This document shows, in pieces, positions 1-5,872 of a stretch of DNA of 7,293 nt. Where the stretch lies: the NCBI GenBank assembly GCA_027031765.1, contig JALVPN010000022.1:1-7293 (forward strand), given 5' to 3'. Made by a program: the position numbers and the translations under genes. Position 1 is the first letter of the stretch, and every line of letters starts with the position of its first letter. This stretch comes from Promethearchaeota archaeon (GTDB lineage: Archaea > Asgardarchaeota > Thorarchaeia > Thorarchaeales > Thorarchaeaceae). Below the pieces are notes generated by a model. That model saw only the letters and a list, made by a program, of their open reading frames with translations, had not been told where the DNA came from and ran no database searches.

Positions 1-1470
1 CTGTGCAAGAAGCGGGGCTTCTTCTGGGGCCCGTCACCAGAGATTTACGGTGGCAGTGCCGGCTTCTACGACCTCGGCCCGCTTGGGAAGCTCCTCAAGA
101 ACCGGCTTGAGGACATGATACGGCGGCGGTTCGTACGTGCCGGGTTCTGGGAGGTCGAGTGTCCAACGGTATCGCCCGCCATCGTGTGGCGTGCGTCCGG
201 TCACCTTGAGGGTTTCATCGACCCGGTCACTCAGTGTACGGACTGTGGTCAGGTCTACCGTGCTGACACGCTCATCAAAGAGCAGGCCCCTGATGCGTCC
301 GTCCAGGGCCTCTCCATGGACGAGATGTCTGCAATGATATCATCCCTGGACATCCGTTGTCCTGCGTGTCGGGGGGCCCTGGGGCCTGTCCGTGAGTACA
401 ACCTGATGCTCAAGACCCAGCTGGGCCTCGACCAGGAGGCATACATGCGCCCCGAAACAGCCACCACCACATACCTCCTGTTCAAGAGGCTCCTCACATT
501 CTTCAGGGACAAACTGCCGGTGTCCGTGTTCCAGATTGGCAAGGCCTACCGGAACGAGATCAGTCCACGGCAGGGCATGCTCCGCCTGCGCGAGTTCACA
601 CAGGTGGAGGCACAGATGTTCATCCTTGAGCGGGACGAGGCGTCATGGCCCCCCTTTGAGGCCGTCCGCGACGAGGTACTGCCACTCCTCCCACATACCA
701 TCCAGGAAACGGGCTCCGAAGAGGTCCAGCAGATGACCCTTGCAGAGGCGCTTGCAGCAGGGCACTTCCAGAAGGCCGCATACGCGTGGTGCGTGTACCT
801 TGCCCACTCGATATTCAGGGACATGGGCTTTGGTGACGGTGCCGTCCGTCTGCGTCAGCACCTCCCCACAGAGCGCGCCCACTATGCTGCCGACGCCTGG
901 GACGTGGAGGTCTATAGCCGCAGTTTCGGGTGGGTCGAGTGCTGTGGTGTCCATGACCGCGGCAACTACGACCTGGCCCGTCACCAGGAGTTCTCACGCG
1001 AACGCCTTAGCGTCAAGGTCGATGGCGAGCTCGTGGTGCCGAATGTCCTTGAGATAGCCTTCGGAGTGGAGCGGCCGCTGTTCTGTGCAATTGACAATGC
1101 ATACGTGCAGGACGAGGAACGGGTCTGGCTGAAGTTCCCGCCCCCCATCGCACCCATCCAGGTAGCGGTCTTCCCGCTCATGGGGAAACCCGAACTTGAG
1201 GGCCCCGCCAGAGAGGTCTACGAGAAGCTCGTGGACAGCGGCCTTGTCGCATACTATGACAAGGGTGGTTCGATAGGCAGGCGCTACCGCCGGCAGGACG
1301 AGGTCGGTACGCCGTTCTGCATCACCATTGACTACGACACCCTCGAAGACAACACCGTGACGGTCCGGAACCGTGATGACATGCAACAGGTGCGGGTGGG
1401 AGTAGACAGTGTGGTAGGGACGGTCGCACAACTCGTGCGTGGTGAGGTCTCGTTCGCATCACTGGGATAG
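1..1470 (+). CDS. glyS: Glycyl-tRNA synthetase, alpha2 (archaeal/eukaryotic, class II) type; 5' end lies just outside the window
   Basis: Frame 1 is open from base 1 (LCKKRGFFWGPSPEIYGGSAGFYDLGPLGKLLKNRLED) into the 115..1470 ORF. It contains GlyRS hallmarks: SGHLEGFIDP, CxxC...CxxC insertion (CTDC/CPAC), MRPETA, motif 2 QIGKAYRNEISPRQGMLRLREFTQVE, DRGNYDLARH, motif 3 FGVER, and the anticodon-binding domain SIGRRYRRQDEVGTPFCITIDYDTLEDNTVTVRNRD. Confidence 0.96.
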   Translation: MCKKRGFFWGPSPEIYGGSAGFYDLGPLGKLLKNRLEDMIRRRFVRAGFWEVECPTVSPAIVWRASGHLEGFIDPVTQCTDCGQVYRADTLIKEQAPDASVQGLSMDEMSAMISSLDIRCPACRGALGPVREYNLMLKTQLGLDQEAYMRPETATTTYLLFKRLLTFFRDKLPVSVFQIGKAYRNEISPRQGMLRLREFTQVEAQMFILERDEASWPPFEAVRDEVLPLLPHTIQETGSEEVQQMTLAEALAAGHFQKAAYAWCVYLAHSIFRDMGFGDGAVRLRQHLPTERAHYAADAWDVEVYSRSFGWVECCGVHDRGNYDLARHQEFSRERLSVKVDGELVVPNVLEIAFGVERPLFCAIDNAYVQDEERVWLKFPPPIAPIQVAVFPLMGKPELEGPAREVYEKLVDSGLVAYYDKGGSIGRRYRRQDEVGTPFCITIDYDTLEDNTVTVRNRDDMQQVRVGVDSVVGTVAQLVRGEVSFASLG

Positions 1471-1660: not shown

Positions 1661-2110
1661 ATGAGCGAGCCCCCCGAGCCCGTTGAGATAAAGACGATAC
1701 TGGTCGCCGTTGATGGTTCGAAACACTCCGACAAGGCAGTCCGTTACGCATGTGCGATTGCCCCGCCGCTCGGTGCCGAGGTGATCCTGCTGCACGTCGT
1801 ACCCATGCTCGTATCGGCAACCCCCTACCACGACACGGTCAGCGACCAGCCATTCCTTGCACTCCAGAAGGTCGGAGAGGACATCCTCTCCAAGGCAAAG
1901 GCCCTTGCTGCCAGCCTCAACTGTCCTGTGACAGACCTGATTGCCCAGGGCGACCCAGCCAACACCATAATCCGCGTGGCCGAAGAGAAGGGGGCTGACA
2001 TCATAGTCATGGGCTCAAGGGGGGTCAGTGGGTTCAAGAGGCTGTTCGTGGGCTCGATAAGCGACAAGGTGGCGAACCAGGCCCCGTGTCCCGTGATGAT
2101 AGTGCGCTGA
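1661..2110 (+). CDS. uspA: Universal stress protein (UspA family, ATP-binding motif intact)
   Basis: N-terminal KTILVAVDGSKHSDKAV, ILLHVV, GDPANTII, and C-terminal DIIVMGSRGVSGFKRLFVGSISDKVANQAPCPVMIV containing G-x2-G-x9-G-S. The symbol is a family-level assignment. Confidence 0.95.
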   Translation: MSEPPEPVEIKTILVAVDGSKHSDKAVRYACAIAPPLGAEVILLHVVPMLVSATPYHDTVSDQPFLALQKVGEDILSKAKALAASLNCPVTDLIAQGDPANTIIRVAEEKGADIIVMGSRGVSGFKRLFVGSISDKVANQAPCPVMIVR

Positions 2111-3402
2111 ACACCACACCACCGGAGACGGCTGCGTCACATCTGGGTGCGGCCATTGACATCGGGACTTCAACACTGAGGGCCGCAGTGGTCGACCTGC
2201 GTTCGGCCCGCGTCCTTGCCACACGTGCTGTCCCCAACCCGCACAATGCGGTCGGGTATGATGTCGTGACGAGAGTGCAATATGCGCTCAGGGGCGAGCG
2301 GGCCGCAGCAGCACTCCGGGACAGTCTCCGTGGTGCCACGGTCGGCCTTGTCACTGGAATGGTCCGCCGGCTCGGCCTGTCACGCGACCGCGTCAGAGAG
2401 ATGGTGGTCGTCGGCAACACGGTCATGCACCACCTGTTCCTCGGGCTATCGGTCGATGGCCTTGCAGAGCACCCCTACACCCCGGAGTCACGGGGACCGG
2501 TGGATGTCTCAGGTGATGCCCTTGCCCTCGACCTGCCCGCGTGCACCTGCCACGTGCCACCTGTGGTCGACGCATTTGTTGGCCCCGACGCGCTGGCGTC
2601 GCTCATCGCCTCAAGGGGACACTGTGCTGGCGGCACCTGCCTTGTGATGGATGTGGGCGTGAACACCGAGCTCGTCCTCGTGGACGGCGACCACACGTGG
2701 ATGACCTCGGCCCCATCAGGGCCGGCCTTCGAAGGGATGTCCATCGAGTGTGGCATGCCTGCAGTACCTGGGGCTGTCTTCTCGGTGCGGGTACAGGAAG
2801 GTGGCCGCGTGGCCGTGAGGACACTGGGCAGAGTGCCACCACGTGGCCTCTGTGGCTCCGGCGCGGTCTCTGCAGTCGCCGAGGCCCTGAGGGCGGGCCT
2901 GCTCACCCGCGAGGGCTCAATCCGCCGTGACACCGTGCACCCGCTCATCGTGAGGGGTCCTGGGCCGTCCGTGTCCATCTGTCTCGTGCGCCCACATGGC
3001 GCAGCCCCGTCCCGGACGAGTCGGGGAGTGTATCTCTCACAGCAGGACATCAGGATGCTCCAGCTCTCAAAAGCAGCAGTGAGGGCTGCACTGGACACGC
3101 TCGTGGCCACTGCCGGGACAGGGAGCAGTGACATTGACAGAGTTGTACTCACGGGTGCGTTCGGCCACAGCATGGATGTCCGGGACCTCGTGGACATCGG
3201 CGTACTGCCGGCACGGCTCGCCCCGCGTGTGGTCCAGGGACGTGACTGTGCACTCCGTGGTGCCATCATGTTGCTGCTGGACAGGGACTTGCGGAGTGTA
3301 GCCTCGTCGCTGGCCTCACGTACACGCTACGTTGACCTTGAGGCATCCCAGTCGTTCGACCAGCGCCTCTCAGCAGCGCGCCTCTTCGATGTCAGTACGT
3401 GA
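2086..3402 (+). CDS. ASKHA-domain protein, DUF4445/RACo-like (ATP-dependent corrinoid reductive activator family), lacking the N-terminal [2Fe-2S] domain; start uncertain (GTG 2086 or CTG 2107)
   Basis: Ordered RACo-family motifs: GAAIDIGTST, NPHNAVGYDVVTRV, VGNTVMHHLFLG, FVGPDA, MDVGVNTE, SGPAFEG..I.CGM.A.PGA, GLCGSG, LSQQDIRMLQLSKAAVRA, VLTGAFG. Confidence 0.88.
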   Translation: MSRDDSALNTTPPETAASHLGAAIDIGTSTLRAAVVDLRSARVLATRAVPNPHNAVGYDVVTRVQYALRGERAAAALRDSLRGATVGLVTGMVRRLGLSRDRVREMVVVGNTVMHHLFLGLSVDGLAEHPYTPESRGPVDVSGDALALDLPACTCHVPPVVDAFVGPDALASLIASRGHCAGGTCLVMDVGVNTELVLVDGDHTWMTSAPSGPAFEGMSIECGMPAVPGAVFSVRVQEGGRVAVRTLGRVPPRGLCGSGAVSAVAEALRAGLLTREGSIRRDTVHPLIVRGPGPSVSICLVRPHGAAPSRTSRGVYLSQQDIRMLQLSKAAVRAALDTLVATAGTGSSDIDRVVLTGAFGHSMDVRDLVDIGVLPARLAPRVVQGRDCALRGAIMLLLDRDLRSVASSLASRTRYVDLEASQSFDQRLSAARLFDVST

Positions 3403-3850
3403 GGTCATCCGGACTGAAGACCTCGCCCCTGCGTAGCCTGGACGATGATAGCGGCCTCCCATCACGCGTCCTGACCCGGGGGACGACCACTATGTGGAAC
3501 CGCCGGAGGCCGTTCCGTTCCCTAAGCTCGTTTATTGCGAAGGCGTTCTTGACCACTGAGATCTCGTCTGACACGACCAGTGCCTCGAGGTCTGCCATCT
3601 TGTCGGCACCCCCCTCCACGGTGTCAATGGGGAACACCGTCCAGCGCCCCTCTGGGCACTCCTCCCTCAGGAAGGCCTCGACAGCCCTCCGCCTCTCCTC
3701 GTAGCTCTGGATCCGCTCTGCATCCTTCTTCCACGAGACCATCCTGTCCGTTGTCAGGCCTATCGCGACGTGCTGGCCCAGACGCAGCGCTGTACGCAGG
3801 AGGTGTCTGTGTCCTTCGTGCAGCCTGTCAAACGTCCCTGCAAAGACCAC
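3392..3850 (-). CDS. coaD: Phosphopantetheine adenylyltransferase, archaeal type (HIGH nucleotidyltransferase); true start may be CTG 3877
   Basis: (YRK)VVFAGTFDRLHEGH HxGH motif, IGLTTD, YEERR, ALVVSDE, INELRERNGL, and DGRPLSSSRLRRGE all match the archaeal/eukaryote-like PPAT pattern. Confidence 0.85.
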   Translation of the reverse strand: MVFAGTFDRLHEGHRHLLRTALRLGQHVAIGLTTDRMVSWKKDAERIQSYEERRRAVEAFLREECPEGRWTVFPIDTVEGGADKMADLEALVVSDEISVVKNAFAINELRERNGLRRFHIVVVPRVRTRDGRPLSSSRLRRGEVFSPDDLTY

Positions 3851-3872
3851 CTTGCGGTACGGCCAGCAGGAA
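3835..3872 (-). other. Predicted RNA stem-loop with GCAA (GNRA) tetraloop starting 5 nt after the peptidase UGA
   Basis: Minus strand reads UUCCUGC-U-GGCC-GU-ACC-GCAA-GGU-GGUC-UUU-GCAGGGA, giving 7 + 4 + 3 bp stems including two G-U pairs. Folded by hand. Confidence 0.4.
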
Positions 3873-3877
3873 GGCAG

Positions 3878-5872
3878 TCACTCCACGCCCCTTGTCTGCA
3901 GCAGTCCCGCCTCTTCGAGGTCTCTGACAATCTCCTCCAGCGTCTTCAGTCCGATGTCGCCGAACTGGAAGCACACCTTCTCCCAGATCTCGTCGAGGGG
4001 CGTCCAGTCACGGGCAAGGTTGAACAGCTCGTCCAGGCCTTCCATTATGTGTCGGTAGTCCTCGCGCATCTCCATGTACTTGAGCGCCTTCGCCCCCATT
4101 TTCCTGAACAGGTAGCCGGGGTTCAGGGCGTACTTGAATGTCCTCCTGACCTCCAGGCCTGACTCGCGTGTGAGCCGTTTGAAGATGTCCTCCTCTTTTG
4201 CCTCCAGCCCGACCTCAGCGCACGCCCCCTCGTATGCCTTCCTTGCAATGAGCATTGATGCTGAGTACGACATCTCAAGGGCGGCCGCCAGCGCGTCCTT
4301 CAGTCTCTCCTGTTCTGCAATCAGGTGCCATTCCTCACCTGCCCTCCGGAGGGTCGCAGTACCAAGTTCGTGGGCGTACTTCAGTTGTCGCAGGAGTCTT
4401 GAGTACTGCTCGTCGGGGTCGCCCTCACACCTCGCGAGTCGGCGTACCCCCCTGATGAGCACCTCTTCGAGTAGCTCCTGTGCCTCAGCCCTGCAGTCAT
4501 TGAGCACGAGCTCCTTGCAGGTGTGGCGCGGCATCGTGAGTGACAGTGTGCTCAACACGGCGACGCGTGTGGCGAGTGCCAGTTGTCCCGGGTCGAGCTT
4601 GTCCACAGTGTCCTCTGACGTGTGATAGAACTTGTCAGGGTGGACATTCAGCATCACCGCTGGCACGCCGACAGTACTGTCCGTGAACATGAAGTGGTCA
4701 CTCCCTGCTGAATAACGGGCGTACCTGCAGACCGGCGGTGCAATGCCCTCACCACGACGCGGCTCGCGGGCCACCTCCCCCTCGTTCCTGAGCCAGTACC
4801 TCACCACATTGTTGAGCGTCGTCGGGAGCGAGAACGGTGTCCTGTAGAGCCACATCGCTGAACCGGCCTTGCACGGGTCTGCACCCACCATGTCTAGGTT
4901 GACCATTGCGATGCAGCGTTGCAACAGCTCCCGTTCATTGTGGATGAACCTGATAGTCCCGAACCACTCCGGCCCCCAGAGGAAACGCACCGAGTACTCT
5001 AGGGGGCCTACAACCCCCCTCTCGATGAGTGACGACAGTGTCCGCAGGGCCTCGAGCAGGGCTGCTGACCCGGAGGCGTTGTCATTTGCTCCGGGCAACG
5101 GGTGGCAGATGTGCGCGAACAGCCACACCTCTTTCGATGGGTCCTGTCCCGGGATCAGGGCACTAAGTACCTCCATTTCCCCCTCTGTGAGTTCCGCCTG
5201 CACCCTGGCCCGTACTCTGACGGTCTTCCCATCCATGAGCCACTGACGGAGCTTCACCCCGTCCGCCTGTGCCAGAGAGAACCCGAACCTCGTGCTGTCC
5301 TTTTCATCCCCCGTGGGCCAGATGGCGTCGTACCGTCGCATGGCTGCAATCTCATCCTTGCCTGACGGTGGGACGAAGGTGAGCAGCCCCACTGCACCGT
5401 GCTCGACACATGCCATCCTGTGGACGTGCCGTGCGCGGGCCTCACACAGTACGACCTTCCCCTCCACATCGAGTCCGTCGTAGTCCTCGGGTCGTGTCCC
5501 CTTCCCGACGTACACCACTTCGGCCTCGACATCAACGGATGTGGAGTGGGCAACAAGGCTGATGGGCTCCGCGGTGTAGTCCGCCAGCAGTCCCTTCTCC
5601 GGTTCCAGTAACTCGAGGGTCCCAGCCGTGGCCCGCCATGCATACGGTGCCGTCCACGTCTCAATGGTGTCCTTGCCATCTGCGGGGTACCTGAACACCT
5701 CGCACTGGGCCCCGGACACCAGACCGGCCTCACGTCGGACGTACTCTATCGCATCGTGGATCCCAGCTGTCGCCTGTATCCTGTGGTGCTGCGATATTGC
5801 CGCCGCATAGCTCTTTGCCCGGACACCGGACACGGTCTCGCGCACCCGTCTGACCATTTCTTCGCGTAGCAT
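3878..5872 (-). CDS. M28-family metallopeptidase/hydrolase with PA domain (DUF4910-like), long helical C-terminal region and terminal winged-helix-like segment
   Basis: PA domain VEAEVVYVGKG...DYDGLDVEGKVVL. Metal-site motifs FAHICHP, GANDNASG, WGPEWFGT, NLDMVG, GSDH, FYHTSEDT. C-terminal ELFNL...TPLDEI...LEEAGLL. SD-like GAGGG at 5880-5876. Confidence 0.85.
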   Translation of the reverse strand: MLREEMVRRVRETVSGVRAKSYAAAISQHHRIQATAGIHDAIEYVRREAGLVSGAQCEVFRYPADGKDTIETWTAPYAWRATAGTLELLEPEKGLLADYTAEPISLVAHSTSVDVEAEVVYVGKGTRPEDYDGLDVEGKVVLCEARARHVHRMACVEHGAVGLLTFVPPSGKDEIAAMRRYDAIWPTGDEKDSTRFGFSLAQADGVKLRQWLMDGKTVRVRARVQAELTEGEMEVLSALIPGQDPSKEVWLFAHICHPLPGANDNASGSAALLEALRTLSSLIERGVVGPLEYSVRFLWGPEWFGTIRFIHNERELLQRCIAMVNLDMVGADPCKAGSAMWLYRTPFSLPTTLNNVVRYWLRNEGEVAREPRRGEGIAPPVCRYARYSAGSDHFMFTDSTVGVPAVMLNVHPDKFYHTSEDTVDKLDPGQLALATRVAVLSTLSLTMPRHTCKELVLNDCRAEAQELLEEVLIRGVRRLARCEGDPDEQYSRLLRQLKYAHELGTATLRRAGEEWHLIAEQERLKDALAAALEMSYSASMLIARKAYEGACAEVGLEAKEEDIFKRLTRESGLEVRRTFKYALNPGYLFRKMGAKALKYMEMREDYRHIMEGLDELFNLARDWTPLDEIWEKVCFQFGDIGLKTLEEIVRDLEEAGLLQTRGVE

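Follow-up and report, generated by a model that had tools for sequence, protein, structure and literature searches.

Probable initiation of CoaD at a CUG codon directly after an upstream stop codon in a Thorarchaeota genome

Termination-reinitiation between genes that overlap, or that are separated by spacers of zero to a few nucleotides, is established in both archaea and bacteria. The E. coli pairs galT-galK and rplK-rplA, with a spacing of +3 nt, are known to be coupled, and the efficiency of coupling collapses past about 15-20 nt (PMC6728339, PMC10666635, PMC12548453). Here, we describe a candidate variant of such coupling in a stretch of 7,293 nt from a member of the Thorarchaeaceae (contig JALVPN010000022.1 of assembly GCA_027031765.1; the whole stretch is called the window below). 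On its minus strand, a peptidase-like open reading frame (ORF) and the gene for CoaD, a phosphopantetheine adenylyltransferase (PPAT), lie in the same frame and are separated by a TGA at 3880-3878. Comparison with related loci suggests that CoaD is translated from the CUG codon at 3877-3875, most likely by termination-reinitiation in this genome, a reading that we favor with moderate confidence.

The arrangement resembles the coupling described in Haloferax volcanii and E. coli, in that the ORFs are co-directional and the downstream start lies a few nucleotides from the upstream stop. The +3 nt spacing of galT-galK and rplK-rplA is also the spacing in 24 of the 25 relatives which carry a CTG at this place. 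The difference is in the restart codon. Described coupled pairs use ATG, GTG or TTG, mostly in ATGA or TGATG overlaps, whereas here the restart codon would be CTG, which is not canonical and is conserved across many species. Restart at CUG is mentioned neither in the coupling review PMC12548453 nor in the 2023 coupling paper. Termination-dependent reinitiation that tolerates a non-AUG restart is known from caliciviruses and influenza B virus (termination upstream ribosome-binding site, TURBS; PMC2793014, PMC3035654). The likeness lies in a restart a few nucleotides from the stop and in an rRNA-complementary motif in the last upstream codons that would tether the small subunit; its Thorarchaeota counterpart would be a Shine-Dalgarno (SD)-like GGAG in the last peptidase codons. 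TURBS differs in being viral and eukaryotic, acting through the 40S subunit and helix 26 of the 18S rRNA, so that the analogy is one of mechanism, with no homology implied. Rare CUG initiation also occurs in bacteria, with CTG listed in NCBI table 11 and the E. coli plasmid protein RepA as the textbook case. There too the near-cognate CUG is the initiator, yet such starts are isolated, whereas here CUG appears to be under selection in a housekeeping gene of about 25 species-level Asgard genomes. In a haloarchaeal ribosome-profiling paper, near-cognate codons made up about 30% of the putative alternative start sites and were set aside. What would be new is coupling with a conserved near-cognate restart codon, here in Asgard archaea.

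The window is contig C22 of a metagenome-assembled genome (MAG; G000) of 2.95 Mb, in 229 contigs and with 59% G+C. The elements around the junction are the following:

3878..5872, minus strand: M28/DUF4910 peptidase-like ORF of 664 amino acids, stop TGA included (ORF list, Pfam)
3878..3880, minus strand: TGA stop of the peptidase-like ORF, in the frame of CoaD (sequence, translation)
3881..3884, minus strand: SD-like GGAG, 3 nt 5' of the CTG (sequence)
3875..3877, minus strand: CTG, proposed initiation codon of CoaD, 0 nt after the stop (sequence and homologous column)
3392..3877, minus strand: ORF of CoaD / phosphopantetheine adenylyltransferase from the CTG, 161 amino acids plus stop (NF001985, 3DO8, AlphaFold)
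3848..3850, minus strand: GTG (Val10), the gene-caller start and fallback start (ORF listing)
3832..3875, minus strand: predicted hairpin with GCAA loop (minimum free energy, MFE, fold)
3809..3838, minus strand: codons for G-T-F-D-R-L-H-E-G-H, the nucleotidyltransferase (T/H)xGH motif region (translation)

The minus-strand junction reads GGC GTG GAG TGA CTG CCT TCC TGC TGG CCG TAC CGC AAG GTG GTC TTT GCA GGG ACG TTT GAC, and its translation in one frame is ...RGVE*LPSCWPYRKVVFAGTFD. Both the sequence and the shared frame across the TGA are exactly as an initial annotation of this DNA had given them. The same annotation had singled out the CTG at 3877 as the only start-like codon, and it is the sole NTG codon between the peptidase stop and the GTG at 3850, with GGAG 3 nt upstream. 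This GTG is the first ATG, GTG or TTG after the stop in the CoaD frame and corresponds to the first Val in K-V-V-F-A-G-T-F-D, and it is from here that the ORF listing gives CoaD (3392..3850, 152 amino acids). The upstream ORF matches the M28 peptidase profile PF04389 with 63.6 bits (cut-off 21.3), as well as PF16254 (DUF4910) with 49 bits (cut-off 26.6).

CoaD matches the archaeal PPAT profile NF001985 with 138.7 bits (cut-off 104), PF01467 with 52.1 (cut-off 21) and the PPAT structure PDB 3DO8 with an E-value of 9e-17. It contains the nucleotidyltransferase motif GTFDRLHEGH and has a predicted Rossmann-like fold, and G14, F16, D17, H20, G22 and H23 (numbered from the CTG) are invariant across 26 CoaD sequences. 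The alignments indicate that homology extends upstream of the Val at 3850, as the initial annotation had suspected. The NF001985 alignment begins at residue 7 (Tyr; profile position 4), matches to relatives begin at residues 3-7, and Tyr7 is at least 90% conserved. Furthermore, strand beta-1 is predicted at residues 7-14 of an AlphaFold model with a mean predicted local distance difference test (pLDDT) score of 94. The C-W-P-Y-R-K codons 5' of GTG 3850 match the (S/C)-(W/R)-P-Y-R-K of loci L032 and L035, and have been kept although the terminal branch that leads to the window in the tree is long. In these two loci, with CoaD identities of 72% and 71%, a TTG directly follows the TGA, and the CTG of the window occupies exactly its position. 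The relative with the highest CoaD identity (76%; L002/L031) has a GTG start that overlaps the TGA (GTGA).

Orthologous loci were collected by a search of 40 relatives and a scan of one genome per species. This gave about 100 loci, nearly all from Candidatus Thorarchaeota (Asgard archaea), of which 73 were distinct after the removal of duplicates. From a metagenome scan aimed at the window's genus and its close relatives, a single distant locus came back. The peptidase gene lies directly 5' of CoaD in all 24 genomes of the same family and in L026, the sole genome of the same order tested. In 48 of the 73 loci, the peptidase stop shares the frame of CoaD and precedes the conserved Tyr codon by 21-36 nt. 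Another 15 are out of frame, with a short overlap or spacer such as the GTGA of L002, L004, L005 and L013, and 10 have a gap of about 75-115 nt between peptidase and CoaD. The spacer between stop and CTG, 3 nt in the relatives mentioned above, is 0 nt in the window, and both values fall within the geometry of coupled genes.

The strongest indication of initiation at CUG comes from the codon column that aligns with it. Among the 48 in-frame loci, this column, 0-3 nt after the stop, holds CTG in 26, TTG in 7, GTG in 5 and ATG in 4, and in another two an ATG follows within a few codons. None of the 48 has CTC, CTT or TTA there. CTA is found solely in L061 and L072, each time with an immediate GTG, and their sister L049 has CTG GAG. 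As a control, CTG makes up 17% of the Leu codons at ordinary positions of these CTG loci, and at the invariant Leu19 all six Leu codons occur (CTA 11, CTG 5, TTA 4, CTT 3, TTG 2, CTC 1). There has therefore been ample time for synonymous change, yet the start column keeps TG while its first base varies, which, as far as sequence can tell, is the signature of an initiation codon. In a tree built from the C-terminal 480 residues of the peptidase together with CoaD, CTG appears in at least five separate places, and inside the largest clade it is mixed with ATG, GTG and TTG. Some relatives thus have a canonical start, ATG, GTG or TTG, in place of the CTG, and neither the frame nor the UGA is conserved.

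Of the 25 CTG loci, 21 have no canonical in-frame start until 12-39 codons past the Tyr. By then GTFD has been passed, and in most of these loci HxGH as well. Each genome has a single strong CoaD match. On this evidence, a functional CoaD in those 21 species requires initiation at CTG or another non-canonical event, and the proposal of (re-)initiation at CUG is supported accordingly by species without a canonical start ahead of the catalytic motif.

The remaining four in-frame loci (L014, L073, L022 and L075), from four species of one genus, have ACG, GCG or TCG in the start column. In this genus, the column lies about 9 nt after a strong SD-like GGGAGG right before the stop, no NTG precedes the Tyr codon, and L014 also has no GTG at Val10 or Val11.

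CoaD could instead start at GTG 3850, with Val10 read as Met. The product would be a 152-residue enzyme without W-P-Y-R-K, and the CTG would be an untranslated leftover. GTG is a canonical start codon that could serve in this genome, the window's database entry (P0003) begins MVFAGTFD, and the solved PPAT 3DO8 begins M-K-V, two residues further upstream than a start at Val10. We still regard this start as unlikely. As had been noted initially, GTG 3850 has no SD and lies inside the predicted hairpin, and the W-P-Y-R-K ahead of it is kept at the amino-acid level, with Tyr7 to Lys9 opening the predicted strand beta-1. In the relatives, the Val10 column reads GTC 27, GTG 18, GTT 14, GTA 13 and ATC 1. 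It is thus an ordinary four-fold Val codon, and GTG 3850 would be a synonymous variant and no conserved start. A start at this column is impossible in 55 of the 73 relatives, so the orthologues do not begin at the equivalent of Val 3850, which supports the CUG start.

The initial annotation had also considered that the UGA is partly read through, with an 826-residue peptidase-CoaD fusion as a source of functional CoaD. Programmed stop-codon read-through, like this locus, involves two ORFs in one frame with a single stop between them and a structure further downstream. The C after the UGA would fit as well, and the genus with ACG, GCG or TCG, in which no start-like codon is present in any of the four species, could be accommodated. 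Unlike in programmed read-through, however, phase, stop identity and context are not conserved here. The phase differs in 25 of the 73 loci, a variability that had been named in advance as counting against this part of the proposal. The supposedly leaky UGA-C context is not shared by the relatives: the stops in CTG loci are TAA in 12, TAG in 11 and TGA in 2, the next base varies, and two loci have double stops ahead of the CTG (TAA TGA CTG in L051, TAG TAG CTG in L088). A search for natural M28-CoaD fusions among longer proteins found none, which is weak evidence. In addition, the hairpin of the window is not significant, and its suggested role as a stimulator of read-through seems unlikely. 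We therefore reject the fusion on the grounds of variable phase, the three different stop codons, the double stops and the missing fused homologue, and consider it barely credible as a source of CoaD.

Another explanation is an insertion or deletion error of 1-2 nt in sequencing or assembly, the true layout being a GTGA overlap with a start at GTG 3881-3879, as in L002. A GTGA is indeed present in the window, L002/L031, its closest match in CoaD, starts at such an overlap, and the MAG is split into 229 contigs. A second public assembly record, which differs in length (L107, an ENA scaffold of 6118 nt compared with 7293 nt here), has an identical junction, and this makes a local assembly error less likely. 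There is also no homopolymer at the site, and more than 20 independently assembled genomes show the same in-frame layout of stop and CTG. Overall, such an error seems very improbable.

The use of SD motifs was inferred from the spacing of motifs upstream of unambiguous starts in G000, where the spacer peaks at 7 nt for GGTG and at 9-10 nt for GGAG, and these peaks fit an SD of the GGAGGTGA type. As to the anti-SD, a contig end truncates the G000 16S gene at model position 828, and the genome that contains L036 yielded no 16S. In the window, the GGAG 3 nt 5' of the CTG is too close for normal SD spacing, and nothing better than a weak AGGGG is present at about 10 nt. Since neither the CTG nor GTG 3850 has a well-spaced SD in the window, restart by a ribosome that has just terminated is favored over de novo binding. 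All 10 loci with a gap of 75-115 nt start CoaD at canonical codons, and non-canonical starts occur in 29 of the 48 tight in-frame loci compared with 0 of the other 25.

CUG may also be used elsewhere in this genome. The gene set of G000 comes from our own crude codon-usage model and includes some spurious ORFs, so that the genome-wide counts are rough. It holds 982 unambiguous ORF-initial starts (ATG 421, GTG 367, TTG 194); this unusually high share of non-ATG starts may partly be an artefact of taking the first canonical codon. In 566 same-strand pairs the downstream frame is open at the upstream stop, with NTGA overlaps the commonest layout (104), and only three junctions, one on C25 and one on C144 among them, have a stop-CTG without a nearby canonical start. 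Among ORF-initial codons with a correctly spaced SD and no canonical start for 8 more codons, CTG leads the non-canonical codons with 14 cases compared with a mean of 3.6 per codon type. This corresponds to 14 of 224 ORF-initial CTGs preceded by an SD, a modest excess over the baseline of about 2.5%.

One of these cases is at C55:16053 (L140:1501-1503), where the sequence GGTGA-TAA-GGT-CTG places the SD GGTGA (L140:1490-1494) at a spacer of 7 nt. In ten relatives the start is an ATG, and a conserved (Y/F)-A-P motif follows 9-13 codons later. In G000, L-V-R-D-Y-A-P is kept, and the first canonical start, GTG L140:1543, comes after the motif. The gene follows a divergent intergenic region and is uncoupled to any upstream ORF. 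On the basis of this homology, it is likely a second CTG start in the same genome, and CUG thus seems to be a genuine, if rare, start codon of this organism, with CoaD the best-supported case. Two other candidates were discarded. The stop-CTG junction on C25 is a matter of chance, with homology beginning at residues 38-45, and C21:1910 (GGAGGTG-TAG-AGA-CTG) is no CTG case, with homology from residues 4-10 and a canonical ATG at codon 11. Pfam matches failed to fix the N-termini of the candidates on C21, C55 and C50. Further ORF-initial CTGs with a well-spaced SD and no canonical start for at least 8 codons are found at C50:6242 and C144:34807 and on C167, C191, C9 and C73. One candidate CTG on C50 forms a CTGA overlap with an upstream ORF of 331 codons.

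The hairpin that the initial annotation had placed after the stop can be folded in the window (about 3875-3832, MFE -18.9 kcal/mol, GCAA loop). Its stem joins the N-terminal tail codons to those for V-V-F-A-G, with the G of the CTG as part of the outermost pair. Compared with dinucleotide shuffles, however, it is no better than chance (z -1.23, 23/200 shuffles as good; z -1.46, 18/200), and its significance in the window is unsupported. Hairpins with this topology reach high significance in the largest related clade, where the equivalent 60 nt from the peptidase stop score z -3.1 to -5.6 and only 0-1 of 200 shuffles fold equally well (L061, L072, L049, L006, L053, L038 and others; L057, L082, L042, L048 and others). 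Sister sub-clades within it use two pairing registers. One register sets the variable codons of the N-terminal tail against those for F-A-G-T-F-D, with a stem that starts 3 nt after the CUG. The other has the CUG within the stem and pairs with the V-V-F-A-G codons, as does the weak hairpin of the window. No such structure was found in the CTG clade of the L009 group (z about 0), nor in the window's nearest relatives with ATG or GTG. When 42 loci are taken together, a common consensus hairpin has an alifold energy of 0. Alifold runs per clade gave weak consensus structures with a covariation term of about 0 and almost no compensatory pairs, because the 3' arm is the highly conserved V-V-F-A-G-T-F-D coding sequence. 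Where present, the hairpin may hide the start region from free subunits, so that CoaD would be made mainly by ribosomes arriving off the peptidase.

Several points weigh against termination-reinitiation at the CUG, in addition to the usable GTG 3850 and the N-terminus of 3DO8. First, a GGAG stands exactly 10 nt 5' of the CTG, within the last peptidase codons, in 18 of the 25 CTG relatives, which makes SD-guided initiation at CUG plausible in these, with or without coupling. Second, the link between tight geometry and CTG is inseparable from shared ancestry: a phylogenetically independent test of phase against non-canonical start was underpowered, with 6 pairs, of which 2 agree and 0 oppose (p about 0.5). 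Third, near-cognate pairing of the CUG type fails to explain the ACG, GCG and TCG start columns. SD-directed de novo initiation at CUG is thus possible in the lineage, because most CTG relatives have a GGAG at the ideal spacing and because the C55:16053 gene is a likely example.

Taken to its full extent, this would mean that the CUG of CoaD is used by ordinary SD-guided initiation, independent of peptidase translation. The 10-nt spacing is the genome-wide optimum, C55:16053 resembles an uncoupled, SD-led CTG start, and CTG is the top non-canonical ORF-initial codon behind an SD. The window itself, with its GGAG at 3 nt and merely a weak AGGGG at about 10 nt, offers little for such a route, and in the large clade free 30S binding would be hindered by the hairpins, which take in the start codon or open 3 nt behind it. 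Together with the canonical starts of all loci with a long gap, this leads us to consider fully independent initiation quite unlikely.

The genes around the junction are as follows:

1-1470, plus strand: class II aminoacyl-tRNA synthetase
1661-2110, plus strand: universal stress protein
2086-3402, plus strand: RACo-like ATPase
5' of the peptidase, minus strand: an ORF of 99 amino acids and a ferritin-like protein

The end of CoaD (3392, minus strand) and the end of the RACo-like ATPase (3402, plus strand) overlap tail to tail by 11 nt, at 3392-3402.

Under termination-reinitiation, CoaD would start at the CUG directly after the peptidase UGA, yielding a 161-residue enzyme that keeps W-P-Y-R-K ahead of GTFD. 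The ribosome that finishes the peptidase would remain on the mRNA, shift by 6 nt and restart on the near-cognate CUG with initiator tRNA. CoaD synthesis would then depend on upstream termination, and each peptidase made would be accompanied by a small, fixed fraction of CoaD. Asgard archaea are the archaeal lineage closest to eukaryotes, and a broader idea, which we put forward only tentatively, is that post-termination ribosomes of Thorarchaeota are relaxed in their choice of restart codon, with routine use of CUG and, in one genus, apparently of ACG, GCG or TCG. Such ribosomes would be kept in position by the SD-like motif in the last upstream codons and by a hairpin blocking free initiation, forming a natural cellular counterpart of the non-AUG-tolerant termination-reinitiation of eukaryotic viruses.

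To our knowledge, standard gene callers cannot start at CTG, and CoaD is therefore truncated in the annotations of these genomes. The public entries for the CoaD of the window have 152 amino acids (MVFAGTFD...) and 116 amino acids (from Met46). The latter, L107:2377-2727 (window 3742-3392, minus strand), is an ENA metagenome gene call without GTFD and HxGH. Several relatives likewise have their CoaD listed as MVFAGTFD or MFAGTFD. In 21 related species, a CoaD read from the only canonical start loses its catalytic motif. The coenzyme A pathway of Thorarchaeota may consequently be marked as broken by mistake in metabolic reconstructions.

A near-cognate start that appears to be selected in about 25 species, always 0-3 nt after a stop, offers a test case for the choice of restart codons in archaea. 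It also bears on the stringency with which Asgard archaea select start codons. Their initiation factors are similar to the eukaryotic ones, and in eukaryotes the best start other than AUG is CUG. If this reading is true, a weak restart codon together with a sequestering hairpin would hold CoaD at a low ratio to the peptidase.

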